Below, piece after piece: positions 14,196 to 64,000 of a DNA stretch of 64,000 bases. The notes below the pieces were generated by a model that was given only the letters and a program-made list of their open reading frames with translations, had not been told where the DNA came from and made no database searches. Position 1 is the stretch's first letter. Each line of letters begins with the position of its first letter. A program made the position numbers and the translations under genes. Location of the stretch: the NCBI RefSeq assembly GCF_057098645.1, contig NZ_CM169472.1, one strand, 5' to 3'.

Positions 14196-14203
14196 AGCGA
14201 ACC

Positions 14204-14335
14204 TCAAATTATTTTATTAAGTGTAAAACAGTTAACGACTATCGCAGCCTGGAACTGCGATAACAACCCATAAGCACATGGATTTTCCAGCAGTGAATGC
14301 TGACGCTCCAACTGCGCAACCGGTTTCTTTTTCAT
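14204..14335 (-). CDS. yqgB: Small protein YqgB (43 aa)
   Basis: Reverse-strand translation read directly: [43 protein letters not shown]. Confidence 0.7.
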
Positions 14336-14470
14336 AACATTATTAAGCACATAACCGAACGTAAGTGTGACAGTTCGGCGAAACCACGAGAAAACTCTTG
14401 TTTTTACAAGAGCGCCCTTGTTCAGTCCTCAGTAACTGTAACCAGCTCTTGAATCCTGAGAAGCGCCGAG

Positions 14471-14686
14471 ATGGGTATAACATCGGCAGGTATGCAAAGC
14501 AGAGATGCAGAGTGCGGGGAACGAATCTTCACCAGAACGGTGAGACAGGTTAAGCAGCAGACAACGGTTCATTATTTCGTATCACCTCCACGGCCGCCTG
14601 TTAAGACGAACCCACAAGCCAAAACTCTGATTTCAACCCGGCTGGAAGTGGCAACACGAAAGAAACGTCGTGTGCTTTTTATTTAA
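14471..14686 (+). CDS. yqgC: Small hypothetical protein (YqgC position)
   Basis: 71-aa ORF between yqgB and metK, matching K-12 gene order; no functional evidence. Confidence 0.4.
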
Positions 14687-14989
14687 GCCGCGCGCCGCGT
14701 TTTATACCCCACAATGGCAGAAAATTGCAAAAGATAAATACGCAGAATGCCGGCATTGTCAGGAAAAATTTCCAGCCACGTTTTTAACAGAATGAGACAC
14801 GATTCAAAAAAAAGTGGAAATCGGGTGAAGAATTGACCTAAAATAGCCATCCAGATGTTAATCCATCCATACCGATTAACACTCAGACTGCCAGTGTTTT
14901 TAACCTGCAGAGTCGTGGTAGGATCCGCTACCACAGAAAATCCACACAACAGTTTGAGCTAACCAAATTCTCTTTAGGTGATATTAAAT

Positions 14990-16144: not shown

Positions 16145-16163
16145 TCTTTCTTCACCTGCGTTC

Positions 16164-16195
16164 AAAGGCCAGCCTCGCGCTGGCCTTTTTCTTTT
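16164..16195 (+). terminator. Intrinsic terminator downstream of metK
   Basis: GC hairpin aaaggccagcctcgcgctggcc followed by a T-run. Confidence 0.75.
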
Positions 16196-16580
16196 ACCTC
16201 ACCGCGGTGGATAGGCGTTCACGCCGCATCCGGCAAAAAAACTGCCCGCACAATAACATCATTCTTCCTGATCACGTTTCACCGCAAATTATCATCACAA
16301 CTGAAACCGATTACACCAACCACAACAGACAAAGATTTGTAATATTTTCATATTATTATTCGGTTTTCACAGTTGTTACATTTCTTTTCAGTAAAGTCTT
16401 AATTGCAGATAACAGCGTTTAATCTATGATGATATAACTCAATTATTTTCATGCACTTAAATCATAACTAAGATAAATGTTAGTGTAAGCGATTACACTG
16501 ATGTGATTTGCTTCACATCTTTTTATGTCGTACTCACCTATCTTAATTCACAATAAAAAATAACCATATTGGAGGGCATC

Positions 16581-17975
16581 ATGCCTGACGCTAAAAAACA
16601 GGGGCGGTCAAACAAGGCAATGACGTTTTTCGTCTGCTTCCTTGCCGCTCTGGCGGGATTACTCTTTGGCCTGGATATCGGTGTAATTGCTGGCGCACTG
16701 CCGTTTATTGCAGATGAATTCCAGATTACTTCGCACACGCAAGAATGGGTCGTAAGCTCCATGATGTTCGGTGCGGCAGTCGGTGCGGTGGGCAGCGGCT
16801 GGCTCTCCTTTAAACTCGGACGCAAAAAGAGCCTGATGATCGGCGCAATTTTGTTTGTTGCCGGTTCGCTGTTCTCTGCGGCTGCGCCAAACGTTGAAGT
16901 ACTGATTCTTTCCCGCGTTCTGCTGGGGCTGGCGGTGGGTGTGGCCTCTTATACCGCACCACTGTACCTCTCTGAAATTGCGCCGGAAAAAATTCGCGGC
17001 AGTATGATCTCGATGTATCAGTTGATGATCACTATCGGGATCCTCGGTGCTTATCTTTCTGATACCGCCTTCAGCTACACCGGTGCATGGCGCTGGATGC
17101 TGGGTGTGATTATCATCCCGGCAATTTTGCTGCTGATTGGTGTCTTCTTCCTGCCAGACAGCCCACGTTGGTTTGCCGCCAAACGCCGTTTTGTTGATGC
17201 CGAACGCGTGCTGCTACGCCTGCGTGACACCAGCGCGGAAGCGAAACGCGAACTGGATGAAATCCGTGAAAGTTTGCAGGTTAAACAGAGTGGCTGGGCG
17301 CTGTTTAAAGAGAATAGCAACTTCCGCCGCGCGGTGTTCCTTGGCGTACTGTTACAGGTAATGCAGCAATTCACCGGGATGAACGTCATCATGTATTACG
17401 CGCCGAAAATCTTCGAACTGGCGGGTTATACCAACACTACCGAGCAAATGTGGGGGACAGTGATTGTCGGCCTGACCAACGTACTTGCCACCTTTATCGC
17501 AATCGGCCTTGTTGACCGCTGGGGACGTAAACCAACGCTAACGCTGGGCTTCCTGGTGATGGCTGCTGGTATGGGCGTACTCGGTACAATGATGCATATC
17601 GGTATCCACTCTCCGTCGGCGCAGTATTTCGCCATCGCCATGCTGCTGATGTTTATTGTCGGTTTTGCCATGAGTGCCGGTCCGCTGATTTGGGTACTGT
17701 GCTCCGAAATTCAGCCGCTGAAAGGCCGCGATTTTGGCATCACCTGCTCCACCGCCACCAACTGGATTGCCAACATGATCGTTGGCGCAACGTTCCTGAC
17801 CATGCTCAACACGCTGGGTAACGCCAACACCTTCTGGGTGTACGCGGCTCTGAACGTACTGTTTATCCTGCTGACATTGTGGCTGGTACCGGAAACCAAA
17901 CACGTTTCGCTGGAACATATTGAACGTAATCTGATGAAAGGTCGTAAACTGCGCGAAATCGGCGCTCACGATTAA
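16581..17975 (+). CDS. galP: Galactose:H+ symporter (MFS sugar porter)
   Basis: [43 protein letters not shown]..., 464 aa. Confidence 0.95.
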
Positions 17976-20174: not shown

Positions 20175-21125
20175 ATGATCAAGCTCGGCATCGTGATGGA
20201 CCCCATCGCAAACATCAACATCAAGAAAGATTCCAGTTTCGCTATGTTGCTGGAAGCACAGCGTCGTGGTTACGAACTTCACTATATGGAGATGGGCGAT
20301 CTGTATCTGAGCAATGGCGAAGCCCGCGCCCATACCCGCACGCTGAACGTGAAGCAGAACTACGAAGAGTGGTTTTCATTCGTCGGTGAACAGGATCTGC
20401 CGCTGGCCGATCTCGATGTGATCCTGATGCGTAAAGACCCGCCGTTTGATACCGAGTTTATCTACGCGACCTATATTCTGGAACGTGCCGAAGAGAAAGG
20501 GACGCTGATCGTTAACAAGCCGCAGAGCCTGCGCGACTGTAACGAGAAACTGTTTACCGCCTGGTTCTCTGACTTAACGCCAGAAACGCTGGTTACGCGC
20601 AATAAAGCGCAGCTAAAAGCGTTCTGGGAGAAACACAGCGACATCATTCTTAAGCCGCTGGACGGTATGGGCGGCGCGTCGATTTTCCGCGTGAAAGAAG
20701 GCGATCCAAACCTCGGTGTGATTGCCGAAACCCTGACTGAGCATGGCACTCGCTACTGCATGGCACAAAATTACCTGCCAGCCATTAAAGATGGCGACAA
20801 ACGCGTGCTGGTGGTGGATGGCGAGCCGGTACCGTACTGCCTGGCGCGTATTCCGCAGGGGGGCGAAACCCGTGGTAATCTGGCTGCCGGTGGTCGCGGT
20901 GAACCTCGTCCGCTGACGGAAAGTGACTGGAAAATCGCCCGTCAGATCGGGCCGACGCTGAAAGAAAAAGGGCTGATTTTTGTTGGTCTGGATATCATCG
21001 GCGACCGTCTGACTGAAATTAACGTCACCAGCCCAACCTGTATTCGTGAGATTGAAGCAGAGTTTCCGGTGTCGATCACCGGAATGTTAATGGATGCCAT
21101 CGAAGCACGTTTACAGCAGCAGTAA
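20175..21125 (+). CDS. gshB: Glutathione synthetase
   Basis: MIKLGIVMDPIANINIKKDSSFAMLLEAQRRGYELHYMEM..., 316 aa, ATP-grasp. Confidence 0.95.
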   Translation: MIKLGIVMDPIANINIKKDSSFAMLLEAQRRGYELHYMEMGDLYLSNGEARAHTRTLNVKQNYEEWFSFVGEQDLPLADLDVILMRKDPPFDTEFIYATYILERAEEKGTLIVNKPQSLRDCNEKLFTAWFSDLTPETLVTRNKAQLKAFWEKHSDIILKPLDGMGGASIFRVKEGDPNLGVIAETLTEHGTRYCMAQNYLPAIKDGDKRVLVVDGEPVPYCLARIPQGGETRGNLAAGGRGEPRPLTESDWKIARQIGPTLKEKGLIFVGLDIIGDRLTEINVTSPTCIREIEAEFPVSITGMLMDAIEARLQQQ

Positions 21126-21233: not shown

Positions 21234-21797
21234 ATGAATTTACAGCATCACTTTCTTATTGCCATGCCTGCTCTCCAGGATCCGATTTTCCGTCGTTCCG
21301 TGGTCTACATTTGCGAACATAATACCAATGGTGCAATGGGGATCATCGTCAACAAGCCGCTGGAAAATCTCAAAATTGAAGGGATTCTGGAAAAGCTGAA
21401 GATCACGCCGGAGCCGCGTGATGAATCAATCCGTCTGGATAAACCGGTTATGCTCGGCGGCCCACTGGCTGAAGATCGCGGGTTTATTTTGCATACTCCG
21501 CCCTCTAATTTTGCTTCCAGCATTCGCATTTCAGACAACACAGTGATGACCACTTCCCGCGATGTGCTGGAAACGCTCGGCACCGATAAACAACCGTCTG
21601 ACGTATTGGTGGCTCTGGGTTATGCCTCCTGGGAGAAAGGTCAACTGGAACAAGAAATTCTCGATAACGCGTGGCTAACGGCCCCGGCAGATCTGAATAT
21701 TCTGTTCAAAACGCCGATTGCCGACCGCTGGCGCGAGGCGGCAAAACTGATTGGTGTGGATATTCTCACCATGCCTGGCGTTGCGGGGCACGCCTGA
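21234..21797 (+). CDS. yqgE: UPF0301 protein YqgE
   Basis: [30 protein letters not shown]..., 187 aa from internal ATG. Confidence 0.88.
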
Positions 21798-22213
21798 TGA
21801 GTGGAACCTTACTCGCCTTCGACTTCGGCACCAAAAGCATTGGCGTAGCGGTCGGCCAACGCATTACCGGCACCGCTCGCCCTTTGCCTGCAATTAAAGC
21901 ACAGGACGGTACGCCGGACTGGAACCTCATCGAACGTTTACTGAAAGAGTGGCAGCCGGACGAAATCATCGTCGGTTTGCCGCTGAATATGGACGGTACC
22001 GAGCAACCATTGACTGCCAGAGCGCGTAAATTTGCCAACCGTATTCATGGTCGTTTCGGTGTTGAAGTAAAGCTCCATGACGAACGTCTTAGCACCGTGG
22101 AAGCCCGTTCCGGTCTGTTTGAACAGGGCGGCTATCGGGCGCTCAACAAAGGCAAAGTCGACTCTGCCTCTGCGGTTATTATTCTCGAAAGCTATTTCGA
22201 GCAGGGATATTAA
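21797..22213 (+). CDS. ruvX: Putative pre-16S rRNA nuclease / Holliday-junction resolvase-like (YqgF)
   Basis: [27 protein letters not shown]..., 138 aa; start overlaps the yqgE stop. Confidence 0.9.
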
Positions 22214-22254
22214 GGCGATTTAAACGCCTGCTGGAGTGTAAATAATATCATCGC

Positions 22255-22395
22255 GCCTTACGCCTTATTGCCGGATGCGGCGTGAACGCCTTATCCGGCC
22301 TACATGTGGCAGCGGTTGTAGGTCTGATAAGACGCGCAAGCGTCGCATCAGACGTTTATTGCCTTTGTAGGCCCGATAAGCTTGCACATCGGGCA
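22255..22395. repeat. REP/BIME cluster
   Basis: gccggatgcggcgtgaacgccttatccggcctac and related palindromes. Confidence 0.8.
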
Positions 22396-22403
22396 TGGCA
22401 ACG

Positions 22404-23384
22404 TCACAAACGCCCTTCCCCCACCCGCTGCTGATAACTCTGCTGAAACGTTATCATCCCCACCTGCTGCCCGGTTTGAATAACATGCGGTAACTGGTGG
22501 GTTTTCCCTTCGCGAATCAAATTCCCCACCGCGGGTGTGTTAATCAGCAATTCAAACAGCGCCACGCGTCCTTCCTGTTTATCCACTTCCAGCTTTTGTG
22601 ACAACACTGCCCGTAAACTACCTGCCAGTTGATTACGTACGGGATCTTTTTCCTGCGCCGGAAATGAATCCACCAGCCGCTTAACTGCCTGCGCCGCACC
22701 ACGCGTATGTAATGTTGCCAGCACCAAATGCCCGGTTTCTGCCGCCGTCAGCGCCAGACGGATTGTCTCGCTGTCACGCAGCTCTCCGAGCAAAATCACA
22801 TCAGGATCTTCCCGCAATGCGGCCCGCAATCCCGATGCGAACGTCATACAATTCAAACCGATTTCCCGCTGCTGGATCAAACATCGCTGGCTGGCATAGA
22901 GATATTCAACAGGATCTTCCAGCGTCAGAATATGCGCATCGGCATGTTGATTGAGATAGCCAACCATTGCCGCCAGCGTGGTGGATTTACCACTCCCCGT
23001 CGCCCCCGTCACCAGAATCAGGCCATTCTCGCTCTTGAGTAATTCCGGCAATACCGGTGGTGCGCCAAGCTGTTCGAGCTGCGGGCAGCACGAAGGTAAC
23101 AACCGTAACGCCAGAGAAATACCTTGCCGTTGTGCGAACGCACTGCCGCGCAATCGCTGGTTTTCCGCCAGCGACACGGCAAAATCCAGCTGACCATTCT
23201 TCAGCAATATTGCCCGCTGATCGTCATCCAGCCACTCCCGCAGTAGCTCTTCGACGTCCGGCGCATCAAACGGTGCAGCTTCCATTAGCCCGCGAATGCG
23301 CCATCGTGCGGGCCAGGCGCTGCACAGGTGTAGATCCGAGACGTTATGCTTTACACTAAGGGCCACAATTTCTTCCATATTCAT
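22404..23384 (-). CDS. yggR: PilT-like type IV pilus retraction ATPase homolog
   Basis: MNMEEIVALSVKHNVSDLHL...; Walker A GATGSGKST; 326 aa from ATG at 23384. Confidence 0.88.
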   Translation of the reverse strand: MNMEEIVALSVKHNVSDLHLCSAWPARWRIRGLMEAAPFDAPDVEELLREWLDDDQRAILLKNGQLDFAVSLAENQRLRGSAFAQRQGISLALRLLPSCCPQLEQLGAPPVLPELLKSENGLILVTGATGSGKSTTLAAMVGYLNQHADAHILTLEDPVEYLYASQRCLIQQREIGLNCMTFASGLRAALREDPDVILLGELRDSETIRLALTAAETGHLVLATLHTRGAAQAVKRLVDSFPAQEKDPVRNQLAGSLRAVLSQKLEVDKQEGRVALFELLINTPAVGNLIREGKTHQLPHVIQTGQQVGMITFQQSYQQRVGEGRL

Positions 23385-49382: not shown

Positions 49383-49796
49383 TTATACAGGCCAGTTGAT
49401 GGATCGATTGTTATTAATGATATCTTCATGAGTCGGTGTCTCACCCAGCTTACCGAAGCTGGCATAAAGTGAAGGCAGACGGGCCCGTCCTTCTCCCTTT
49501 TTCGCCAGAGGGAAAGCGCGAAGCATGGCGGCAGCCTCCCAGTCACAACAATAGGATGGTGTGCACGGCTGCTGACGCCATGATTCAGCGATAGAGCCTG
49601 AAAATACGGGGTCAAAGCCGGTATCATTAACCAGAGTCATCGTGACCTGTACTGCGGCTGGATGATCTCCTGCTACTGCAACTGCTAGGCGACCGCGGCT
49701 CCCTTCAGGTAGTCTATTGTGGTCAACTAAAACTGGCCTCCGCGTTAGAGTTTTTCCAGTATCGGTTTTCTGATTCGTTTGGTGGTAACCCACCAT
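49383..49796 (-). pseudogene. 3' remnant of a gene truncated by the IS629-like insertion (possibly NAD(P)-binding reductase-like)
   Basis: Minus-strand ORF whose N-terminal portion runs into the IS left end at 49797; only about 138 C-terminal codons lie outside the IS. Confidence 0.4.
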
Positions 49797-49850
49797 TGAA
49801 CCGCCCCGGGAATCCTGGAGACTAAACTTCCTGAGAAAGAGGTAAACAGG

Positions 49851-50177
49851 ATGACTAAAAATACTCGTTTTTCCCCTGAAGTCCGTCAACGGGCAGTCCG
49901 TATGGTTCTGGAAAGTCAGGGCGAATATGACTCACAATGGGCGACAATTTGTTCCATTGCTCCAAAGATTGGCTGTACGCCGGAGACTCTGCGTGTCTGG
50001 GTTCGCCAGCATGAGCGGGATACCGGGGGCGGTGATGGAGGGCTCACCACCGCTGAACGTCAGCGTCTGAAAGAGCTGGAGCGTGAAAATCGTGAACTGC
50101 GCCGCAGTAACGATATCCTTCGCCAGGCTTCCGCTTATTTTGCGAAGGCGGAGTTCGACCGCCTCTGGAAAAAATGA
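49851..50177 (+). CDS. IS3-family transposase OrfA
   Basis: 108 aa, [35 protein letters not shown]... Confidence 0.85.
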
Positions 50178-51064
50178 TGCCACTGCTGGATAAGCTGCGT
50201 GAGCAGTACGGGGTCGGACCGCTATGCAGCGAACTGCATATTGCCCCGTCAACGTATTACCACTGTCAGCAACAGCGACATCATCCGGATAAACGCAGTG
50301 CCCGTGCGCAGCGCGATGACTGGCTGAAGAAAGAGATACAGCGCGTATACGATGAAAATCACAAGGTATACGGTGTGCGTAAAGTCTGGCGTCAGTTGTT
50401 ACGGGAAGGTATCAGAGTGGCCAGATGCACTGTGGCACGTCTCATGGCGGTTATGGGACTTGCCGGTGTTCTCCGGGGTAAAAAGGTCCGTACGACCATC
50501 AGCCGGAAAGCCGTTGCCGCAGGCGACCGCGTAAACCGTCAGTTCGTGGCAGAACGACCTGACCAGCTGTGGGTGGCTGATTTTACTTACGTCAGCACAT
50601 GGCAGGGCTTCGTCTATGTGGCGTTCATCATTGATGTGTTTGCCGGATACATTGTGGGGTGGCGGGTCTCATCGTCCATGGAGACGACATTCGTGCTGGA
50701 TGCACTGGAGCAGGCGTTATGGGCCCGTCGACCGTCCGGCACGGTCCATCACAGTGATAAAGGTTCTCAGTATGTATCGCTGGCCTACACACAGCGGCTT
50801 AAGGAAGCCGGATTACTGGCATCAACAGGAAGTACAGGCGACTCGTATGACAACGCGATGGCGGAGAGCATCAATGGTCTTTACAAAGCGGAGGTAATAC
50901 ACCGTAAGAGCTGGAAAAACCGTGCAGAAGTGGAACTGGCCACACTCACGTGGGTGGACTGGTATAACAATCGACGATTGCTGGAAAGGCTGGGCCATAC
51001 TCCTCCGGCAGAAGCAGAAAAAGCTTATTATGCTTCCATCGGAAACGATGATCTGGCAGCCTGA
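50174..51064 (+). CDS. IS3-family transposase OrfB
   Basis: 296 aa, DDE domain. Confidence 0.85.
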
Positions 51065-51106
51065 GTTCACAGATAAAACACTCTCCAGGAAACCCGGGGC
51101 GGTTCA

Positions 51107-52391
51107 TTTTTTCCTGACGCTTGCCGAGTCCGGAGAACGAAAAACCGCAGTGGACAAATTATTAATGAAGCCCCTGTACCAGCAGGAGATGCAGTTATAT
51201 TCCAGATACAAAAGTGAACTGGCTGTCTGGAAAAACAAGGAAGAGCTTTTAAAGGCTCAGAAAAAAGCATTGTTGTCAAAACTGAATAAAGAACTCCGCA
51301 AAGGCGCGGATGAGTCAGAAACCCTCAGACAACTGGAAGTACTTCAGAAAAACAGTGCGGAAGAACCTGTGAGGTATAAATTCATTTTTAATGATGCCAC
51401 GACTGCGGCAATTAAGAATCAGCTTTGTGGTAAATGGCGTTCAGTGGGTATTATGTCAGATGAAGCCGGTATTATATTTGATGGATATACCCTGTCTGAG
51501 TTGCCTTTTATTAACAAAATGTGGGATGGCTCTGTATTGTCTGTGGACAGAAAGAATGAACCCGAACAGATGATTGAAAATGCCAGAATGACGTTATCCC
51601 TCATGGTGCAACCAGGTCTTTTTGACCGATATATGGAGCGAAAAGGTTCTGTTGCCAGGGACAGTGGTTTTCTTGCCCGTTGTCTTATCAGTAAACCTGC
51701 AACCACGCAGGGGAAACGCTTTATTAACGGAGCTGTGATTCCGGGAGGATCATTAACGGCATTTCATGAACGATTAATGGAACTGGCCAGAGGCAGTATT
51801 GAAAAATCCAGTGAGGATGAACGGTATTGTCTGCATTTTTCGCCTGAAGCGCAAAAAATATTTATTGAGCACTATAATGTTCTGGAGCAGGATTTATCCC
51901 CTTCCGGACCCTTAAGCCCGTTTCGGGGACATGTTTCAAAAAAAACAGAAAACATTGCAAGAATTGCAGCGTTATTTCAGTATTTCAGCTATGGTGAAGG
52001 GAAAATCTCTGCCGATATCATGACGTCTGCTGTCGTAATAAGTTCGTGGTACACAGATGAATATAAAAAATTATTTGCGTTACCTGATGAATCTGAACTG
52101 CAGCAGAAGGACGCCGAGGAGCTGTTCGACTGGCTCATTGAGGAGTGCCGCGGAGAATGCCCGCCCCGTGTCAGGAAAAATTATATTCTCCAGTGTGGCC
52201 CGGGCTGGTTCAGAAACAGGAAAAAACTGAACGCATTGCTGAACATTCTTGAATCTCAGTTCAGGCTTTCTGTCGTGCCGGAAGGAAAAACCATGTATGT
52301 TCTGCTTCCCCAGATAGCCAGTTTAAAGTTGTCTGATGTCTCTGGTATTTTTACCTCGGGTTATCACTACAATAAGCTGAGAGCGAAGTAA
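51107..52391 (+). pseudogene. DUF3987/YfjI-like protein (P4-like island gene), 5'-truncated by the IS insertion
   Basis: The long ORF 50922-52391 begins inside the IS and has no start of its own downstream of the IS end; roughly 428 codons resemble the YfjI/DUF3987 family as I recall it. Confidence 0.5.
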
Positions 52392-52490: not shown

Positions 52491-52712
52491 CTAAAGCTCA
52501 GGAGCTGCGTGGTGGTGATGAATCAACAGGCATATAACTGATACCCGCCGGTCAGAAGTTCCAGCCTGCGACTTTCCTGTCTGCGTGCCCGCAGTCCGGC
52601 GTTCAGGTGCAGCGTGTGACAGAACGCACGGAGAGCGAAACGGCAGGCAGACAGGCCGTTCAGTCAGCCCTGGCACCCTGCCCGGATACCAGCTTCCCTG
52701 AAACAACTGGCA

Positions 52713-53321
52713 TCAGGTGCGCTTATCGTCAACCGTTGTGCGGTATGCCAGGAGCACGTACTGATCCATCAGATCCGTCAGTGCTGCGCTCTGCTTCTGA
52801 CGGTTGATGATCCATTCCTCCAGCTCTTTTTCTGATTTCCGTTTCAGATTCTCCGTCCAGTCGTCAAGGCAGTTTCCGGTCATTAAATCAAGCCAGCAAA
52901 GCCAGACCAGTTTGAGGCGCAACTCCGTGCCACCAAACTGACGGAAGAGGCTGATCAGTTTATTTGCCAGCGAACGCTGCCTCAGACGTTCACATTCAGA
53001 CAGGAGAATGCCTTCCAGCATCGGATGATGAACCAGCAGATGTTCACTGGTGCATAAATTCACTATCAGATCATCATCCAGGGGCGGCGTGGTCCGTTTG
53101 TCCGGACCATAAATCAGCCGGTGCAGACTCTGGGGTACGATGGCAATCTCCGGTTTTTCACCATTGAATGACACCCACCCGGGCGTCAGATTATGGAAGT
53201 AGTAGATATTCGGATGACACACGCCCCAGGATACGGCGTGCCGGGTGAAGCCGGTCAGCCATTTCTGGTAGCTTTCGTGGAGCAGCTCGTAACGGGTCTG
53301 ATACTGTGGTTTCATTTTCAT
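52713..53321 (-). CDS. Hypothetical protein (P4-like island), downstream of the alpA-like gene
   Basis: ORF 52713-53462; probable start at MKMKPQYQTRYELL (ATG 53321, preceded by a GAGGA Shine-Dalgarno); no family recognised. Confidence 0.5.
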   Translation of the reverse strand: MKMKPQYQTRYELLHESYQKWLTGFTRHAVSWGVCHPNIYYFHNLTPGWVSFNGEKPEIAIVPQSLHRLIYGPDKRTTPPLDDDLIVNLCTSEHLLVHHPMLEGILLSECERLRQRSLANKLISLFRQFGGTELRLKLVWLCWLDLMTGNCLDDWTENLKRKSEKELEEWIINRQKQSAALTDLMDQYVLLAYRTTVDDKRT

Positions 53322-53401
53322 ATTCCTCACGGGGGATAACAGGCAGCAGAACGCCGCCGGCAGGCCGGAGACTGCGTCTGCTGCAGATGAACGGTTAAGA
53401 A

Positions 53402-53608
53402 TTACGGACGGGACTGTGCAATACGCGCCTGCAGCCAGGCTTCCACTTCGCTTTTCAGCCATCGGGAGCTGCGGCCCATTTTGATGGGCGCAGGAAAGTC
53501 ACCATCCTTGATGAGTTTGTAAAACCACTTATCGGTCAGGCCGGTCAGTTGAGTGATAAATGCCATGTCGACCATCTGGTCATCCATCAGTGAAACTGGG
53601 GTGATCAT
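53402..53608 (-). CDS. AlpA-family phage/island transcriptional regulator (excisionase-like HTH)
   Basis: ...MAFITQLTGLTDKWFYKLIKDGDFPAPIKMGRSSRWLKSEVEAWL... matches the AlpA/Phage_AlpA pattern; exact start ambiguous among several in-frame ATGs. Confidence 0.7.
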   Translation of the reverse strand: MITPVSLMDDQMVDMAFITQLTGLTDKWFYKLIKDGDFPAPIKMGRSSRWLKSEVEAWLQARIAQSRP

Positions 53609-54255
53609 GAGAATGTTCCTCCGGATGTTGTTAAACCAGCCGGTGTGGTCATGAAAACAACGCACCACCTTCACCGGCATAACAACCGGGGAGAAACGTA
53701 AAAAATAATCGGGAATGTGACCGCCAGGAGATAAACGGGGAGGTTACGGTGGCTGAGCCGTACCGGTATGCCGGGTGGTTGTTACGAAACGATGCTTCCG
53801 CACGCGCGCGCGATAAAGAAGGGATGATTTTCGTGAGGAAGAGGGGAAAACTGGCGTTCTGATAATTGCAGAGTTATTTACGGGGCGGTTACGATGGGGC
53901 AGACCGTGTCCGGTGGGCAGGCGACAGGTATCACCGATGGGATAAGACTGTCTGATTGGTATTATAAATATATAAGAGAGAGCAAACACATGAGATCAAA
54001 TACATGAGTTCATATATGTGAAATAAACACGGTGAGTGTGATCAGTGGGCATGTGCAAAATGGCATCTGAATCGATCGCAGTTTGGCATTCGAATCGATC
54101 ATGATTTGGCATCCATCTCCGATCACAGTTTGGCATCACAATCGATCACGATTTGGCATGCTTCCGATCATTGATTGGCATCCTGCCAGTCACTCCGGGA
54201 ATTAACTCTTTTCACCACAGTCTCCATTGCCGTGTTTAAACCAGTGGAGACGTCA

Positions 54256-55821
54256 ATGTCCAGAAAGAGAAAATCCAGGAGCACTATGGAAACCTGTTTT
54301 AAGATCCTTCAGCTCAAGTTCGACAAGAAGCTGACTAACCGTTGTATCGGACTGACGTTACACATCAGCGCCTCAACCGTTTTTGAGGTTCTTGCCCGCT
54401 TCAAAGCCTCTTCTCTGTCATGGCCATTACCTGCTGATATATCCCATGACACGCTGGAGAAACTCATTTTTCCGCCCAAAGACACCTTTGCATCAGAGCT
54501 TGTAATGCCTGACATGTTGTACTTCGATACGGAAATGAGAAAACCAGGTGTGACGCGGCAACTGTTGTGGATGGAATACAAGGCACAGGCGGGTAACAAA
54601 GCGATGGGATACTCGCACTTCTGCCGTTGCTACCGGGAGTGGAAAAAAACGCGACGTCTCTCCATGCGCCAGGAGCATCGTGCCGGCGAAAAGCTTTTTA
54701 TCGACTTCTGTGGTCCTACGGTTCCTGTTATTAATCCGGACACCGGTGAGATACGCCGCGTGGCAATCTTCGTGGCCGTAATGGGGGCGTCCAACTATAC
54801 CTACGTTGAAGCGTGCGAAGGTCAGGACATGATGTCATGGTTAAATGCCCACAGCCGTTGCCTGACCTTCCTGGGCGGCGTACCGAAGCTGCTCATCCCC
54901 GATAACCTCAGAAGCGCAGTGAAAAAGGCCGATCGATATGAGCCTGTCATCAACGACAGTTATCAGGCACTGGCTGAGCACTATGGCACGGTTATCATCC
55001 CGGCCCGACCACGCAAACCTAAAGATAAACCAAAAGCAGAAAACGGCGTCCTCATCGTTGAACGATGGCTTCTTGCCCGCATCCGTAATGAAACCTTCCA
55101 CACGCTCAGGGCGCTGAATGCGCGCCTTAGGGAGTTACTGACAGACATGAATAACCGGCCAATGAAGGGGTACGGCAATCAAACCCGTGCAGAACGCTTC
55201 CGCATACTGGATGCGCCAGCACTCTCTCCGCTGCCTCTGGCACCTTATGAATACACGGAATACAAAGCTGTGAAGGTTGGCCCTGACTACCACGTTGAAT
55301 ATGCCCGTCACTGGTACTCCGTTCCACACGAACTGGTCGGTCAGCGTCTGTCACTGAAGGCGGGGCAGTCGGTGGTACAGCTCTGGCACAAGGGGCAGTG
55401 TGTGGCGCAACATCCGCGCAGCACACATGAATATAAACACACAACCAATCCGCTTCACATGCCAGAGCGCCACCGGCAGCACGGGACATGGACACCGGAA
55501 CGCCTGATCGAGCAGGGAAAACGTACGGGCCCGTCCACAGGCCGGGTGGTTGAATCCATGCTGAAGGCAAAACCCCATCCGGAACTGGCTTATCGTGCAG
55601 TTCTGGGGCTGCTGGCACTTCAGAAAAAATACGGCCCGGAACGGCTGGAAAAGGCCTGTTACGTTGCCCTGCACTATAACGCCCCTGACAGACGCTTTAT
55701 CGACAATCTGCTGCGTCACCATCGGGAGAACCTGGAGCTTCCATTATCCCGCCAGGGCGAACAACATCCGGCATATGCTTCAGAGCATGAAAACCTGCGT
55801 GGTCCGGGCTACTACCACTGA
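54256..55821 (+). CDS. istA: IS21-family transposase IstA
   Basis: 521 aa from MSRKRKSRSTMETCFKILQLKFDKKL...; HTH plus DDE domain. Confidence 0.8.
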   Translation: MSRKRKSRSTMETCFKILQLKFDKKLTNRCIGLTLHISASTVFEVLARFKASSLSWPLPADISHDTLEKLIFPPKDTFASELVMPDMLYFDTEMRKPGVTRQLLWMEYKAQAGNKAMGYSHFCRCYREWKKTRRLSMRQEHRAGEKLFIDFCGPTVPVINPDTGEIRRVAIFVAVMGASNYTYVEACEGQDMMSWLNAHSRCLTFLGGVPKLLIPDNLRSAVKKADRYEPVINDSYQALAEHYGTVIIPARPRKPKDKPKAENGVLIVERWLLARIRNETFHTLRALNARLRELLTDMNNRPMKGYGNQTRAERFRILDAPALSPLPLAPYEYTEYKAVKVGPDYHVEYARHWYSVPHELVGQRLSLKAGQSVVQLWHKGQCVAQHPRSTHEYKHTTNPLHMPERHRQHGTWTPERLIEQGKRTGPSTGRVVESMLKAKPHPELAYRAVLGLLALQKKYGPERLEKACYVALHYNAPDRRFIDNLLRHHRENLELPLSRQGEQHPAYASEHENLRGPGYYH

Positions 55822-55837
55822 CAGAAGGAACAACAGT

Positions 55838-56593
55838 ATGAGTGATAACCTGTTAAACAAACTGACCCAACTGAAACTCCCGGCGATGGCCGGGAGCCTG
55901 ATACGGCAGCGGGAAACGCCTCAGACCTACGACGAACTGTCGTTCGAGGAAAGGCTGACGCTGCTGGTTGATGACGAGCTTCTGAGCAGGGAAAACAGCC
56001 GTGTGGCACGGTTGAGAAAAAATGCCGGCCTGAAATACCAGGCAACACCGGAAGGGCTGCGCTATCCGGCCTCAAGAGGTCTGCGGGCTGAACAGATGAG
56101 AGAACTGCTGAACGGCCACTACATAACCCACAGGAAAAACCTGCTGATAACCGGTCCGACAGGATGTGGCAAGAGCTGGATAGCCAATGCGCTGGGCGAA
56201 CAGGCATGTCGACAGAAACACAGCGTCCGGTACTGTAGAACCGGGCGATTACTGGAACAACTGGCTCAGGGACGTGTTGATGGCAGCTGGCTGAAATATC
56301 TGAAACAGTTGCAAAAAATACAGGTTCTAATCCTGGACGATCTGGGGCTGGAACAGTTAAGTAACGCCCAGTGTAATGACCTTCTGGAGCTCATAGAGGA
56401 TCGTTACGGACAAAGCAGCACGATAGTGGTAAGCCAGTTCCCGGTAGATAAATGGCATGGTCTGATGGAGAACCCAACAACAGCAGATGCCATCCTGGAC
56501 AGACTGGTACATAACTCACACCGAGTGGTCCTTCAGGGAGAGTCACTGAGGAAAAATCCCCCGGTAGTGGAAAGCAGCGAAAAAACGCGTTAA
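55838..56593 (+). CDS. istB: IS21-family helper ATPase IstB
   Basis: MSDNLLNKLTQLKLPAMAG...; Walker A GPTGCGKS; AAA+ IstB-like. Confidence 0.85.
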   Translation: MSDNLLNKLTQLKLPAMAGSLIRQRETPQTYDELSFEERLTLLVDDELLSRENSRVARLRKNAGLKYQATPEGLRYPASRGLRAEQMRELLNGHYITHRKNLLITGPTGCGKSWIANALGEQACRQKHSVRYCRTGRLLEQLAQGRVDGSWLKYLKQLQKIQVLILDDLGLEQLSNAQCNDLLELIEDRYGQSSTIVVSQFPVDKWHGLMENPTTADAILDRLVHNSHRVVLQGESLRKNPPVVESSEKTR

Positions 56594-57568
56594 AAAGCGG
56601 TAGAAAAAGTTAAGTTCCCGGTTGATCGAATGGATGCGAATCGCTGATCGGACTTCGATGCCAATCCGTGATCGAATAGAGCGGAATACGCAGGCATGAT
56701 GAGAACGCAGTAGCAACAGACTGCGCTATCCCTGATAGCTGGCGTATAACCTGCGTATATAAAACGTACCAGCAACGCACGTGAACAGAGTGCATTAAGC
56801 ATCCGTCGTTGACACCGACCTGGTGAGTGACAGTCTGAGAGACCGGTTAAGTGGTGGTACGGGAGTAATGAGTTTGGGGAGGGTACCAGAATGTCAGTCT
56901 GGTACGGTATGCTGACAGTATCACGTTAATTGCAGCATAAAGTGATGAGAGGCTAATGGAAGTTAAAACCAGAGCAGTTCCGTCGTTGTTCATCCCGGGA
57001 GACACTGGAAAAAGTGATTTCCCACACGCGTTATAAGCTTACTCTAGCGGAGATGGAAGCCTTCAACTCTGCGGTCGATCACCGACTGGCAGAACTGACA
57101 ATGAACAAGCTTTACGATCGTGTTCCCGCTTCAGTCTGGAAATATGTCATCTGAGCGTTCGGTAATCACAACTGCATCGCGCCAGGTGTTATCCGCTTTG
57201 TGATTCTTATTGGCTCTTCTCAGGTTATTAAAAGCTGAATATGTTCCTGTTGTCGGGAACCAGGATAATACCGGGAACGTTAAGCGGTATAGCGACAACA
57301 AAGAATTCGAAATCAAAAGGGAATGGTGCCGGAGGCGTGGGCGGTAATGGGCTGATTTTCAGGTATTACCGGCTTACAGCGTGTGGTTGATATTGAGGGG
57401 CTGTGAGTTTCACGTATTTGTCAGAAACCCAGACGAGTTTTCCTGTATGAGACGAAATAAGGCAGCGGCAATACATGGAAAAATTTAATATGCTATGAAG
57501 GAGAACCTGTCGGTTACGCTTAATATAACCGGTACACTGTCAGCTCAGGGGATACATGAACCGTTATC

Positions 57569-57973: not shown

Positions 57974-58543
57974 ATGACCTACAAATACAACCCCTTCTGG
58001 CAGCAACGTATTCGTGAGACGGTGCGGCACGCACTGGATGTTCATCCCCGCCTGACGGCATTGCGGGTTGATCTGCGTCTCCCGGATGTACCGGCAGCAA
58101 CGGACGCGGCTGTGATATCCCGCTTCATCAATGCCCTGAAAGCCCGAATCGACGCTTACCAGAAACGTAAGCATCGGGAAGGTAAACGCGTGCATTCCTC
58201 GACCCTGCATTACGCCTGGGCCCGGGAGTTCGGGGAGCTTAAAGGCAAAAAACACTATCACCTGCTGCTGCTGGTCAACCGGGATACCTGGTGTCGTGCC
58301 GGCGATTACCGCGCTCCGGGGTCACTGGCCGGAATGATTAAACAGGCCTGGTGCAGTGCCCTGGGGGTGGATGCCGGATGTTATGCCACGCTGGTGCATT
58401 TTCCGGTCAGGCCGGCGGTGTGGCTGGAACGCGATGATGAAACCGGCTTTCAGCAGGTACTGGAACGTGCTGGCTATCTGGCGAAGGAGCATACCAAAGC
58501 TCGCGGCACCGGTGAGCGCAACTTTGGCTGTAGCCGGAGTTGA
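57974..58543 (+). CDS. YagK/YfjJ (inovirus Gp2-like) family protein
   Basis: 189 aa; N-terminal MTYKYNPFWQQRIRETVRHALDVHPRLTALRVDLRLP resembles the YagK/YfjJ family found in CP4-type islands (from memory); Shine-Dalgarno present. Confidence 0.5.
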   Translation: MTYKYNPFWQQRIRETVRHALDVHPRLTALRVDLRLPDVPAATDAAVISRFINALKARIDAYQKRKHREGKRVHSSTLHYAWAREFGELKGKKHYHLLLLVNRDTWCRAGDYRAPGSLAGMIKQAWCSALGVDAGCYATLVHFPVRPAVWLERDDETGFQQVLERAGYLAKEHTKARGTGERNFGCSRS

Positions 58544-59203: not shown

Positions 59204-59625
59204 ACTGTTATATGGCGAATGACAGCAAGGGGCATTTTGTTACGGCGAAAGAAGCAGCGAAGCACAACCGCCGGGACGTTTTGTGCTGTGTGTCCTGTGG
59301 ATGCCCGTTAACACTTCAGCGGGGCAATGACGGACAACAACCGTGGTTTGAACATGACCAGATGACTGTCGCTGAGAAAATCCTGCTGCGATGCACCTGG
59401 CTTGACCCGGCAGAGAAAGAGGCCCGTCGTTTGCATCTGCAGGGTATGACAGTTCTGGATTATACGGTGAAGGTGAGAAAGTGGTTTTGTGTGATGTGTG
59501 ACGAAGATTATGAAGGAGAAAAGTGCTGCCCGCGTTGTGGTACCGGGGTATACAGCAGGGCGTGGGGGCGGCAGGATGTGCCGTCGGAAGATGCCAGGGC
59601 TGATAATCCGTTACAGAGGTTGTAA
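59191..59625 (+). CDS. Cys-rich putative zinc-binding protein, paralog B (translationally coupled to A)
   Basis: 144 aa from ATG 59191 (GGGAGG Shine-Dalgarno); shares CxxCG...PWFEH and W.C..C.(D/H)DY.GE..C..C.TG motifs with paralog A; 13-nt overlap with A. Confidence 0.55.
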   Translation: MRILNCYMANDSKGHFVTAKEAAKHNRRDVLCCVSCGCPLTLQRGNDGQQPWFEHDQMTVAEKILLRCTWLDPAEKEARRLHLQGMTVLDYTVKVRKWFCVMCDEDYEGEKCCPRCGTGVYSRAWGRQDVPSEDARADNPLQRL

Positions 59626-61012
59626 TGGTTGCCTCTGGCGCAGTTTGCGGTGATGCCGTTCCCGGGAATGGATTGCCAGTGCGGGGACTGTGGAGCTTAA
59701 TTCCGGTGTTGGTGGCCTTTCCGTTGATTTTGAGCCAACAGCCCTCCTGTGACTGACAGGCTGCCTCGTCATTCCATACGTATCTTCAGGTGAACAGATG
59801 CATGTCTGAGCGTACTCACGCAGCCGGCCCGGCAACCGCGGTGGTACTACGCTGGCTGCGAGAAAATACAGAAAGCACCAGAATACGCTCTCCTGTTGCT
59901 GATCAATCAGGATCTCATGCACCTACCGGGATCTAGGGCTAGAACTGATGAAACCGATTCGCACCTGGCTGAGTTAATGCTACAGGCCAGGGCATCACTA
60001 CCCCCTGACGAGCACTGTACTGTGGTATGCAGTTACAGGGGGCGTGTGCAGCCACACCTGAAAGCAGTGAGTCGTTCACGGCATTCAAAAACACGTGCCT
60101 TTCGTTCGCCGTTCCTGTGATGGCCGGCATCATTTGCTAAGCCGTTACCGACGTTATTCCCTCCGGGACACGCCTCTGGTTGAGGCTTTGCCCGGAGCAA
60201 TCGAATGAAAATAAGTTAAGTCACCGAAAGGGAGGATGTAGTCAACCGGGGGAACAGTAATAAGCCGTCGTGCTTTTATCGTACAAGTGTGTTGCGTTTT
60301 GCACCGAAAATACGATAGAGGTCGTTTATGGATTCCGCAGGGAGTGCTGATTATTATTCACTGGCAGCAGACAGCGATGTGTGTGCAGGCATTCAGGGGG
60401 ATGTTGTCAGCAGAAGGGTGCGTATAGCAGATTGTTGTTATACATGGCGTATGAAGTATTACCAGTCATGCGGAGTAGTGTGGTGAGGGGCTGTATGAGA
60501 AATCGCCACCTTCTTGTCAGAGAGGGAACGCTACCATGAAAGTCAAAAGCGATAACGCAGACCGGTACGATCGGTAGGTAAAACTGTAGCGGTGTGCTGC
60601 CGCCGAGGTCAGAATAATCTGCGCGTTTTTACGCCAGCGCCACCGACGAACAGCAGGAGATTGAGGGGAATTTGGCGGCGATAAAGACGTAGAAGAGAAA
60701 AACGGGCAATTTGCCGCATGCCCACAGAATCAGTGAGATCGTTAGCGACAGCAAAATGATCGGCAGCCAGCGGCGGCCTGCAATATCGGGATGAAGGAGA
60801 TCCTACGATATCGATGCTGCACCTGATATGTACGATCAGTAAATAGAGTACGAAACAGCAAACACGACGATAATAACGCTGGCAGCGGTGCCTGTCAGGC
60901 AAACGCCCACACGCAATAAAATAAATCAACCATCGCAGGGCCGTGATCATCCGCATACACCGCTGATGACGCGTCTAAAAACGCGTCAATATGACTTCCC
61001 CGGAACATTACC

Positions 61013-62254
61013 TCATTTCAGGGTATGGAGAATTTTTAACATCGAGTTATCTATGGTCTGTTTGACTTTTTCGTAATAGATCGGTTCAGATAATGACGAA
61101 TCCCAGGTATGAATATCGTTCTTATTAAAAGGAATGCATTTCATGGCTACTGCCTTTAACTGTTTCCCTTTTTGCTCATACTCATTGATATCATTAATGG
61201 TAAATTTCAAACTCTCTTTTCTTGCTTCTGTTATTTCAGTTGGGCATACCAGCTTTATATCTCCTAAGGTAAATGTACTGACCCCGGTGATGAAAAATCT
61301 CTCGGGGATTTCTGTATAGTGCCGAGTATTCCAGATTAAGCCATTAAACATACTATGAGAATGAGTTTTATTTTCGATATAATACTGATGCGTTCTCCAG
61401 TCACTAATGCCTGAGAGACTCATTACCATATTAATGATCATATTTGGGATAGGGCGATACCACATACTGAATACAGTAATTACAACTGGTATGCATATTA
61501 AAACAACTATGAATCCAGTGAATTTATCACCATTTCTGCGCTCATTAAGATGTATGGCACCAGGCAGAATGCCAATAGTAACAATAGCTGCTGTTAAGGC
61601 AAGGAGCATTAGCATTTCAACCAAATCACTTGTCTCCTCACTAAAATCAAGTTGGGTAAGCAGAAATAACATAGGTAATATTTGAACGATCCCGGGAGTC
61701 ATAAATTGCAAGGGTAAAAAACATAACAATCCTGGTTTTCTTGGTAATTTCTCATAGTTATCAGATTTATGCCAACTAAATCTCTTTGTTTTAAATAGAT
61801 TAAAATAGGATACAAAATAACTAAAAGCAAGCATCAATACAAAACCGGTGATACTTATGGAATAACCATTCCATCCATAAAGATAGTAAATATAGTAGCC
61901 AACAATTATACTACAGCATATAAACAAGCTATTTAGATAACAAACAGTGGAAATTCGATGTGGTATGCTTGGATAATTTTTGAAATTATCTTCATGTAAT
62001 GTGTAAATGAGGATTAGAATAAAAGAGGAAATGAAAATTACTAAGCTAAACCCAGAAAACGATACTATTATAAAAACAAAAATGATACCTATGGCTGAAC
62101 TGAGGCTTACAGTATCAAAGAAAATATCTAATCTATCTATGTTTGACAGATAGAACCATATAACAGCCATTGTGCATCCAGTAATAAATGTAGATGAGGT
62201 TATTACTGAAATAATGAATTTTTTATTCAACAGCTTTATGACAGATTTATTCAT
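61013..62254 (-). CDS. AT-rich polytopic membrane protein with C-terminal soluble domain (unknown function)
   Basis: 413 aa; multiple predicted transmembrane helices in the N-terminal roughly 270 aa, hydrophilic C-terminus; codon usage and base composition visibly AT-rich compared with flanking DNA. Confidence 0.6.
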   Translation of the reverse strand: MNKSVIKLLNKKFIISVITSSTFITGCTMAVIWFYLSNIDRLDIFFDTVSLSSAIGIIFVFIIVSFSGFSLVIFISSFILILIYTLHEDNFKNYPSIPHRISTVCYLNSLFICCSIIVGYYIYYLYGWNGYSISITGFVLMLAFSYFVSYFNLFKTKRFSWHKSDNYEKLPRKPGLLCFLPLQFMTPGIVQILPMLFLLTQLDFSEETSDLVEMLMLLALTAAIVTIGILPGAIHLNERRNGDKFTGFIVVLICIPVVITVFSMWYRPIPNMIINMVMSLSGISDWRTHQYYIENKTHSHSMFNGLIWNTRHYTEIPERFFITGVSTFTLGDIKLVCPTEITEARKESLKFTINDINEYEQKGKQLKAVAMKCIPFNKNDIHTWDSSLSEPIYYEKVKQTIDNSMLKILHTLK

Positions 62255-62884
62255 AATCCGAATTCCATACCTGATAAAATTCGTATTGTAGTGAGGACCG
62301 ATTTTTTGAGCAACTTATAACCATCGCTTAAAGCTACTTGCTACCATACATGCCGTTATCCCGAACCATAAAGCGCTTGGCAGTAACACCAACATCACAG
62401 ACAGATACTGCGGTTGCGCCAAATAAAAGAATGGCGGATAAGGTCGGCGGATTGCAACGTGATGCTGTGCTGTAGGATGACTTCTGCGGTCTCGTCCAGC
62501 GCCAGCCACTCCTGGCGGATTTTGTGTGGGGGCATGGTGTGTTCCTTTTTGTGTTGTTGGTTGCGTATAGTGCTTGTTGATGATGAAAACCGGTGTGAGA
62601 TATTTTTGCCAAAACAACTAACACTGATCAGTGTAGGTAACGAGCTTTTCAGACATAATATGGTGATGATTTACACTGGAAAAACAGGACGTAACACTGA
62701 ATAGCTCTGGAGACGATTTGCTTGAAGTGGCGTGCTATTTGTTGAAAGAAGAATTTCTGATGATACCTTATTTTAAAGGAGGCTAAAGGGAGAGGAGAGA
62801 GCCCTGTTGAAATCAACAGGACTTAATAGCTCCTCTCCGAAGGGCAAGGAGATCACCCGTGCGCCTGGTTAGGTGAAGAAGTAC

Positions 62885-64000
62885 TCAGCGTGGTTGCAGA
62901 CAGTTATCTTCTTTCCAGCCGTACAGCCACTCCATGCCGCGATAAAACTCTGCCTGCGATTTCCCTTTCCACAGCAGGTTACGAACCTGGCGTTCTACTC
63001 CCGCGGCGTGATAAACCCGTCCCATCTCACGGGTCGACCAGACAATACGCGCGGTGCGCGGAATACGTACCGACTCATACAGCGCAAAGGCTTGCGCCGC
63101 ATCACCCTCACACTGCGCCAGCGCCTTACCCAGCGTTACCGCGTCTTCCAGCGCCATACAGGCACCTTGCGCCATATATTGCGCCACTGGATGGGCTGCA
63201 TCGCCCACCAGCGTAATGCGGTTAGTGCCCCATTTCGCGACTGGTTCACGGTCGGCAGTTGACCAGCGTCGCCATGAAGTCGGTTTATCCAGCATCTGGC
63301 GCGGACGCGGGTGAATCCCCTCAAAGTAAGAGAGCACTTCCTCTTTACTGCCATCCTTCACGCCCCACTCTTCCTGCTGGCGGCTGTGGAATGTCACCAC
63401 CAGGTTATACTGCGTGCCGCCGCGCAAAGGGTAATGCACCAGGTGACAGTGCGGCCCCGCCCACAGTACCGGTGCGTTAATGCGCAAATCTTCCGGCATA
63501 TCGGCACAATCGATAACCGCACGGTAGACAACATGTCCGGTGACACGCGGCGCATCGCCCAATAAGCTCTGGCGCACCACTGACTTCACGCCGTCACAGC
63601 CAATCAGAATATCGCCGGTCCAGCTATTGCCGCGATCGTCAAACACGGTGACATCGTCTTCCGTCTCGCGAATATCCACGACGTTGGTGGAGGTGTGATA
63701 TTCCACGTCCGGATGCGTCAGTACCGCTTCCCACACCGAGGCGTGAATATCAACCCGGTGGATCACCGCGTAAGGACCGCCGAAATGGTCACGAAAGGCC
63801 TGCCCGGTTTCAATGCGCACCACTTCTTCGGCGTTCACCGCATCCATCATGGTAATGTGATCGGTAAACACCGCGCGCTGGCGGGCAACTTCGCCGACGC
63901 CGAGGCTGTCCAGCGCCGAAAACGCATTTGGCCCCAACTGGATGCCCGCGCCAATCTCACCGATCTCATGCGCCTTTTCCAGCAGCACCACTTTGATCCC
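62885..64000 (-). CDS. FAD-dependent aromatic-ring monooxygenase (salicylate/3-hydroxybenzoate hydroxylase-like), N-terminus beyond window end
   Basis: ORF runs to the window edge; ...VLLEKAHEIGEIGAGIQLGPNAFSALDSLGV... and C-terminal GDAAHPVAQYMAQGACMALEDA motifs typical of group A flavin monooxygenases. Confidence 0.7.
   Translation of the reverse strand, partial: GIKVVLLEKAHEIGEIGAGIQLGPNAFSALDSLGVGEVARQRAVFTDHITMMDAVNAEEVVRIETGQAFRDHFGGPYAVIHRVDIHASVWEAVLTHPDVEYHTSTNVVDIRETEDDVTVFDDRGNSWTGDILIGCDGVKSVVRQSLLGDAPRVTGHVVYRAVIDCADMPEDLRINAPVLWAGPHCHLVHYPLRGGTQYNLVVTFHSRQQEEWGVKDGSKEEVLSYFEGIHPRPRQMLDKPTSWRRWSTADREPVAKWGTNRITLVGDAAHPVAQYMAQGACMALEDAVTLGKALAQCEGDAAQAFALYESVRIPRTARIVWSTREMGRVYHAAGVERQVRNLLWKGKSQAEFYRGMEWLYGWKEDNCLQPR

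Follow-up and report, generated by a model that had tools for sequence, protein, structure and literature searches.

Genes and features of the alpA-X200 locus

The window analyzed here, a stretch of 64,000 nt from contig NZ_CM169472.1, carries on its minus strand a short alpA-like gene (53402-53608, with its ATG at 53608 and its stop codon at 53402-53404), a non-coding spacer that contains a two-tier hairpin (53334-53386, minus strand), and a gene for a 200-aa protein, here called X200 (52713-53315). Together with a conserved leader or promoter-proximal segment on the 5′ side of alpA (53609-53720, minus strand), they make up a self-contained cassette of ~1.03 kb (~52690-53720, minus strand) that lies at the hub of an integrated island.

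The 207-nt alpA-like gene encodes a 68-aa winged-helix protein of the AlpA/Vis/TorI type, a putative recombination directionality factor (RDF) or regulator. The initial annotation placed it in the AlpA family of HTH proteins, and this is borne out by matches above the Pfam cut-offs to both PF05930 Phage_AlpA (35.6 bits, 8.6e-9; cut-off 21) and HTH_17 (29.7 bits; cut-off 27), and by PGAP, which annotates the same 207-nt gene in DNA identical to the window. PHROG families described as “excisionase and transcriptional regulator” also match the protein, and its top PDB sequence matches are 8c3t (AlpA family) and the TorI excisionase (1z4h). It is 64-91% identical across ~35 related loci, and its median pairwise dN/dS of 0.134 indicates purifying selection; it is only 23% identical to the AlpA protein of E. 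coli K-12.

The frame that ends at 52713 follows alpA on the same strand, as the initial annotation stated; the overlap between the two genes that it also described does not hold. All 39 aligned homologs begin at the MK... that matches the ATG at 53315, and PGAP agrees (WP_000804452.1, called in DNA 100% identical to the window). This start leaves an 86-nt non-coding spacer between the alpA stop codon and X200, which evolves as a structured hairpin and not as a protein. An alternative ATG at 53321 would give a protein of 202 aa, and among the candidate frames only the mechanical 249-aa ORF (ATG 53462), which starts within alpA, overlaps that gene. No second copy or paralog of X200 is present in the window.

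The left end of the island is a tRNA-Phe gene (38585-38660, plus strand; ARAGORN), and next to it lies a gene for a P4-type tyrosine integrase (38858-40120, plus strand) with the Pfam domains Arm-DNA-bind_3, Phage_int_M, and Phage_integrase; this layout is identical in strain RM12761. Convergent with X200 is a 5′-truncated yfjI (DUF3987) gene (51107-52391, plus strand), whose Pfam DUF3987 match (1.4e-83) begins at profile position 38. The intact yfjI gene of E. coli RM9872 encodes 494 aa, and the homology in the window begins at its nt 198 and abuts a 1,310 bp IS3-family element (49797-51106, plus strand), so the DUF3987 gene was correctly described as being cut by an insertion sequence. The element contains transposase ORFs at 49851-50177 and 50174-51064, joins yfjI to the fec region, and is 100% identical to annotated IS3-family copies in RM9872 and RM12761; the name IS629, given in the initial annotation, is consistent with its length and family. 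An IS21-family element (istA/istB; 54049-56692, plus strand; ORFs 54175-55821 and 55595-56593) is a simple insertion ~440 bp upstream of alpA, outside the conserved leader. The corresponding site is empty in RM12761, where the flanks are contiguous with a ~6-bp overlap, and in RM9872 it is occupied by a different IS3-family element.

In the divergent arm, a gene of the YfjJ/YagK or “inovirus Gp2 family” type (HUH-like; 57974-58543, plus strand) matches Pfam YagK_YfjJ_C (4.6e-46) and falls just under the cut-off for REP_ORF2-G2P (9.7e-6). The full SRL-PAI/CP4-57 backbone, as seen in relatives, comprises alpA, a YfjJ/Gp2-like gene, Hha, and a Zn-ribbon pair, with an opposite arm made up of GTPase, DUF932, antirestriction, RadC, and CbtA/CbeA genes. 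The Gp2-like and Hha side is present in the window, and the island carries fecIRABCDE; the GTPase/Ag43 arm that relatives have 3′ of X200 is missing and is replaced by an IS, the IS-cut yfjI meeting the fec region there. The alpA-X200 cassette itself is intact.

The gene pair is syntenic in ~30 species. Of 31 loci in other species, 29 have a co-oriented alpA as the immediate 5′ neighbor of X200, at a distance of 62-103 nt; in one of the two exceptions a Zn-ribbon gene lies between alpA and X200, and the other stops at the end of its contig. Klebsiella and Yersinia loci show this arrangement as well. The same flanks, a distantly homologous ~305-aa protein with the GTPase arm on one side and the Gp2/Zn-ribbon arm on the other, enclose the cassette in opposite orientations in the E. 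coli type of island and in the islands of other Enterobacterales, and in relatives a YfjJ-like HUH-type gene lies either immediately before alpA or immediately after X200. In both island types conservation of the cassette extends from ~110 nt 5′ of alpA to ~23 nt past the X200 stop codon. Beyond the pair, the neighbors vary and include BREX, Dnd, LlaJI-type restriction, fec/gentisate, and other genes. Because X200 stays while the neighboring cargo changes, it belongs to the island backbone; the pair was rightly assigned to the island core, and the suggestion that X200 might instead be a cargo function is unlikely.

In an alignment of the 260 nt upstream of alpA from 25 loci, only the final ~110 nt are conserved, in both island orientations. 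This segment contains a TTTTTTACG box ~100 nt upstream of alpA, conserved in both island types, and a CCGG...CCGGAGG inverted repeat that covers the alpA Shine-Dalgarno sequence. A simple scan upstream of alpA found no σ70 consensus, and in the window a leader hairpin that covers the Shine-Dalgarno sequence does not reach significance by itself (z = -1.15), with too little variation among the loci to judge it by comparison.

The X200 protein family and the structured spacer

X200 is a real gene under selection, and it represents an unnamed protein family restricted to the Enterobacterales. The initial annotation left room for a frame with no conserved homologs or one disrupted in related islands; instead, X200 is a conserved partner of alpA, with a median pairwise dN/dS of 0.098 (32 sequences, dS ~0.9). 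Its start, length, and two invariant motifs, G-[IV]-L-[LI]-S-E-C-x-R-L and L-L-C-W-x-[DE]-L, are kept in relatives of 22-29% identity, and positions that are invariant down to 22% identity include Q17, P61, G102, S106, E107, R110, L139, C140, W141, and Y186. The protein is predicted to be cytoplasmic and soluble (pI 6.7), with no hydrophobic segment.

Searches of Pfam, NCBIfam, PHROGs, PADLOC, and PDB sequences with the single protein and with all 30 family members or a profile gave no family match (the PADLOC-DB defense models yielded 0 families at E ≤ 1), no recognizable DNA-binding, NTPase, or nuclease motif is seen in X200, and a literature search for WP_000804452 found no papers. An AlphaFold2 model made with distant members in the alignment is confident (pLDDT 87.2, pTM 0.86) and predicts a long N-terminal helix, a β-hairpin, and a C-terminal six-helix bundle. 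This model has no structural neighbor in a search that excluded AFDB models. Low-Z structural matches to the six-helix bundles of CARD/DED/PYD domains are a weak lead only.

Homologs of 56-100% identity occur in Escherichia, Salmonella, Klebsiella, Yersinia, Hafnia, Serratia, Pantoea, Cronobacter, and other genera. A profile search of 1.84 billion cluster representatives returned 125 clusters, all of them members of the family and mostly fragments, alongside a few full-length relatives that share 22-47% identity. In a further profile search, which covered 5.8 billion proteins, there were 412 matches; none of the best 120 of these carries a Pfam domain, and all of their named sources are Enterobacterales. 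Three metagenome-assembled contigs labeled Bacillota, Clostridiales, and Collinsella look like binning errors, and apparent fusions of X200 to a phosphotriesterase or to an IS1 transposase were rejected as deletion or IS artefacts. X200 is present in 3,416 of 5,426 complete E. coli genomes (63%), with a median of two copies and a maximum of six, and 6,021 of the 6,024 copies lie on chromosomes. No genuine phage carries it, and genuine plasmids are essentially free of it; a tblastn search of 50,697 phage records produced a sole match (34%), to “Salmonella phage S.Kent 1-2-1”, which was rejected as a phage carrier since the record is an unverified, low-coverage, host-like contig of 3.6 kb.

The hairpin between the two genes has 17 bp in the family consensus. 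In the window its folding energy is -24.8 kcal/mol (z = -3.0), and it ends ~20 nt before the X200 start codon (20-30 nt in relatives). The stems are mis-registered in the MAFFT alignment of the spacers; the structure was specified by hand, and a covariance model (R1) was built from eight relatives, which matches the window spacer (26.2 bits, E 6e-5) and ~32 other loci. The alignment used to assess pairing was fitted to the covariance model and contains some spurious rows with low scores; in it, pairing holds for 86.9% of cells (34-49% in slid controls) and 13 of the 17 pairs show compensatory changes, with 0 of 500 shuffles as good. The G-U pairs of the hairpin are frequent on the sense strand, which favors an RNA element or at least a strand-specific one. 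Its matches to Rfam are at chance level only, far under the gathering scores. No promoter-like sequence was seen in the stretch between the hairpin and the X200 start, so X200 is most simply read through the hairpin from alpA.

Comparison with known islands

Judged by its tRNA-Phe site, fec operon, and Hha, YfjJ/Gp2-like, and Zn-ribbon genes, the element in the window is an SRL-PAI/CP4-57-type island. Such islands are vehicles for virulence genes (Ag43, ferric citrate uptake), for multidrug resistance (SRL), and for many anti-phage systems (BREX, Dnd, restriction), and roughly two in three complete E. coli genomes contain them, often more than once. In the Shigella flexneri SRL PAI (Luck et al. 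2001; PMC6980539), orf39 is listed as YfjJ/Gp2-like, orf40 as Hha, orf41 as Vis/AlpA, and orf42 as a protein of “no similarity”; these are followed by unknowns, the YeeP/YfjP-type GTPase gene orf46, and orf47 (Ag43). An undisrupted E. coli island (locus L046) has exactly the gene order of orf39-orf47. By synteny the alpA-like gene in the window is the counterpart of orf41, whose product has been classed with the Rox and Vis recombination directionality factors (PMC2603039), and X200 is the counterpart of orf42, the two being equated by gene order only. The SRL PAI and the E. coli islands compared with it also share the fec operon, an IS66 element, and a phytase-like esterase. The window island differs from the SRL PAI in its integration site (tRNA-Phe rather than serX) and in having lost the arm beside X200, where the convergent yfjI remnant now lies.

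CP4-57 of E. coli K-12 has the order intA-yfjH-alpA-yfjI-yfjJ ... yfjP-yfjQ ... yfjX-yfjY-yfjZ-ypjF. Its architecture and most of its backbone families recur in the window-type islands, among them a P4-type integrase, an AlpA-family gene that is followed by a gene of the yfjJ type, and the GTPase/DUF932/antirestriction/RadC/toxin arm, but CP4-57 is without X200. The initial annotation asked what usually occupies the slot after alpA in intact islands, and the answer depends on the island: it is X200 in the SRL type and in other Enterobacterales, and yfjI followed by yfjJ in CP4-57. We infer that X200 takes the position, flanked by alpA and yfjJ, that belongs to YfjI (DUF3987) in CP4-57; yfjI was not found within 8 kb of the alpA-X200 pair in the loci from other species. 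YfjH of CP4-57 was tried as a relative of X200 and rejected (E 0.61), as was SEN1998 of ROD21, which is an RDF. Functional work on islands of this type has been done almost entirely on CP4-57, that is, on an island that does not have X200.

The 68-aa protein is of the same winged-helix kind as the RDF subgroup that contains Rox, P4 Vis, and TorI. Rox, Vis, and TorI have been demonstrated to stimulate excision, an activity that is putative in Orf41-type proteins, and the descriptions consulted of these three include no X200-like partner. The initial annotation called the island P4-like. The integrase architecture and the Vis/AlpA-type protein are in keeping with this, but X200 has no genuine phage homolog and the island as a whole matches SRL-PAI/CP4-57. 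The left operon of satellite phage P4 (vis ... alpha) shares with the window island a Vis-like first gene, a P4-type integrase, and a nearby DUF3987 gene; no P4 morphogenetic or replication genes are seen around the cassette, where yfjI shows DUF3987 only, and the window-type islands, unlike P4, carry the Ag43, fec, and defense cargo typical of pathogenicity islands. Pseudomonas tmRNA islands, which are transduced by a jumbo phage (PMC12595487), share with the enterobacterial islands a tyrosine integrase (IntY), AlpA, an inovirus Gp2-like protein, RadC, HTH proteins, defense cargo, and many unannotated ORFs (PMC12595487). They belong to a different host clade, whereas X200 homologs were found only in the Enterobacterales.

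Possible roles of X200

The reading that we favor, tentatively and from sequence comparison, is that X200 is an accessory to the life cycle or the regulation of the island and is co-transcribed with AlpA. X200 would be made from the second gene of the alpA transcript, reached through the hairpin, and would serve the life cycle of the island, whether by assisting the AlpA-type factor or by carrying out a subsequent step that AlpA switches on. What it controls could be excision, the HUH initiator of the YfjJ type, or either of the divergent arms, and the hairpin may set the amount of X200 relative to AlpA through attenuation or RNA processing. A place in the backbone does not by itself imply control of excision, because the backbone also includes toxin-antitoxin and anti-restriction genes. 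In addition, at one locus (L043) a 91%-identical AlpA is paired with a 36%-identical X200; the two proteins therefore do not evolve in close step, and a specific complex between them is made less likely. A distant paralogous subfamily of X200 lies after Zn-ribbon and UCP030791 genes and not after alpA.

A bolder form of the same idea is that X200 is a new fold and family, and supplies the life-cycle factor so far missing from the tRNA-integrated islands that are most abundant in E. coli and its relatives (the SRL PAI, Ag43/fec, and BREX/Dnd carriers). It might, for example, couple AlpA-triggered excision to replication or transfer initiated by the YfjJ-type HUH protein, with its dose set by a new cis RNA hairpin that is read through by an AlpA-type protein or by RNA polymerase. 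We regard this as unlikely. The alpA-X200 cassette deserves attention, yet nothing found here makes X200 extraordinary; should it prove to be just another accessory protein, the gain would lie in better annotation, with one candidate for a new Pfam family and one for an Rfam motif, and would be no surprise. In either case X200, being conserved, under selection, structurally an orphan, and directly behind the excision regulator, is an obvious candidate for a knockout, and the conserved hairpin offers a concrete cis element.

X200 could instead be an establishment, anti-defense, or host-modulating factor whose targets would be the host or incoming or competing elements, and which AlpA-linked control would reserve for induction or recent acquisition of the island; this seems rather unlikely. 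In the E. coli type of island alpA and X200 head an arm that runs in the same direction and contains leading-region-like genes (KlcA-type antirestriction, RadC, DUF932, CbtA/CbeA), but elsewhere in the Enterobacterales the cassette is directed away from the anti-restriction arm. X200 is an orphan that diverges fast compared with AlpA (44-65% against 64-91% identity across related loci), as is typical of proteins engaged in conflict, and the L043 locus suggests that multiple X200 alleles pair with one AlpA. Its dN/dS, however, is uniformly low (0.10) and gives no hint of diversifying selection, and neither PADLOC nor PHROGs contain a match to it.

By analogy with P. aeruginosa AlpA, which enables RNA polymerase to pass intrinsic terminators that lie shortly before its target genes (PMC7969949, PMC9371919), the hairpin might itself be the functional center: a terminator or attenuator subject to override by an antiterminator of the AlpA family, with X200 and the genes beyond it expressed only when AlpA is active. 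This would be compatible with a life-cycle role for X200, but we think it unlikely. The hairpin is conserved with compensatory changes and sense-strand G-U pairs, and in most of the relatives outside E. coli a terminator-like TTTTCT follows the inner stem; in the window, on the other hand, the hairpin has no U-run and the terminator scan makes no call there, and it is missing or degenerate in loci of Yersinia ruckeri, Photorhabdus, Providencia, and Morganella that keep both genes. Covariation, moreover, would look alike for a terminator, for an element of RNA stability or processing, and for a single-strand DNA site. The PDB sequence matches of the AlpA-type protein are of the excisionase type and include no entry for a complex with RNA polymerase, as would be expected of a P. 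aeruginosa AlpA.

It is decidedly less probable that AlpA and X200 form a toxin-antitoxin-like or abortive-infection pair, in which the HTH protein would restrain a growth-inhibiting X200 and the pair would serve island stabilization or phage defense. A small HTH gene followed by a gene for an unknown protein is a common layout of such systems, the islands are rich in defense cargo, and there are several X200 copies per genome. The two genes, however, are separated by a structured spacer of 62-103 nt rather than overlapping or being tightly coupled, X200 matches no toxin or defense family in Pfam, NCBIfam, or PADLOC, and the island already has its own CbtA/CbeA module. The HTH protein is of the excisionase/RDF type (TorI, 8c3t), and its weak matches to the defense-associated HTH models MADS1 and PDC-M06B lie far under the cut-offs (17.8 against 80 bits).

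That the 200-aa ORF is a functionless chance or decaying frame can be dismissed with near certainty: its annotation is “hypothetical protein” only and some copies are damaged (RM12761 has a truncated copy, and the Serratia locus L030 a nonsense codon), but the frame is refuted as such by its conservation, with a dN/dS of 0.10 over 32 sequences, a start, length, and motifs that persist in distant relatives, a confident AlphaFold2 fold, and a copy spanning at least 80% of the gene in 3,346 complete E. coli genomes.

Orientation and pairing of the alpA–X200 cassette

The cassette formed by alpA, the spacer hairpin and X200 (the 200-aa protein gene directly downstream of alpA) has opposite orientations in E. 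coli type islands and in those of other Enterobacterales when read against a common pair of flanking arms, GTPase/hyp30x on one side and Gp2/Zn-ribbon on the other (compare bp 9023–9926 of L046, an undisrupted E. coli island, with bp 7699–8600 of the related locus L002). At locus L043 (bp 3576–4440) AlpA is 91% identical to the window protein but its partner X200 is just 36% identical, and this mismatch between the paired sequences suggests an exchange of alleles in or close to the spacer. The spacer itself carries a conserved two-tier hairpin of 17 bp (window bp 53,334–53,386, minus strand) that displays compensatory changes across about 30 loci and has no Rfam entry; it could be a new cis-regulatory RNA motif.

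X200 paralogs and neighboring reading frames

A distant X200 paralog subfamily (∼30% identity) is present at bp 7001–7588 of L007–L009 and bp 11,040–11,624 of L018, where its members are preceded by two DUF7828 Zn-ribbon genes and one UCP030791 (YfjJ-like) gene; in L018, from Salmonella diarizonae, both subfamilies lie within a single island. Between X200/alpA and the GTPase gene lies a conserved minus strand gene for a ∼305-aa protein (L046 bp 6905–7822; L002 bp 6284–7198), with 20% identity between the forms in E. coli and Klebsiella (E = 2e-6). It matches no Pfam family, has a ribbon-helix-helix-like appearance at its C-terminus and matches the MatP N-terminal domain faintly. No convincing ORF was found in the ∼1.2 kb downstream of X200 in the undisrupted E. 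coli island (L046 bp 7823–9022). A short ORF antisense to the X200 3′-end (window bp 52,607–52,807, plus strand; L046 bp 8920–9117), labeled hypothetical protein by PGAP in relatives, is probably spurious.

Insertion sequences and island cargo

A single point ∼440 bp upstream of alpA differs among three strains: it holds an IS21-family element in the window (bp 54,049–56,692) and an IS3-family element in RM9872 (L001 bp 21,648–22,909), and is empty in RM12761 (L006 bp ∼20,461–20,466). This point between the divergent arms may be a hotspot for IS insertion. A mechanical ORF of 489 aa (window bp 50,922–52,391, plus strand) runs from the right end of the window's own IS3-family element into truncated yfjI, and could yield a chimeric product or IS-driven read-through toward the X200 3′-end.

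In other species anti-phage systems often make up the cargo immediately past the cassette (L002 bp 9772–16,600; L003 bp 8794–16,594; L011 bp 12,973–14,597), the types being BREX (BrxA/B/C with GmrSD), DndBCDE with a DndB-like/DUF87 set, and LlaJI-type restriction. Outside the cassette region, the window's tRNA-Phe island (bp 38,585–49,552 and 59,600–64,000) includes fecIRABCDE and, past the Gp2/Zn-ribbon genes, a 3-hydroxybenzoate/gentisate cluster; O145:H28 strains have the same layout. Its int-proximal region contains IS1 and a phosphoethanolamine-transferase fragment.
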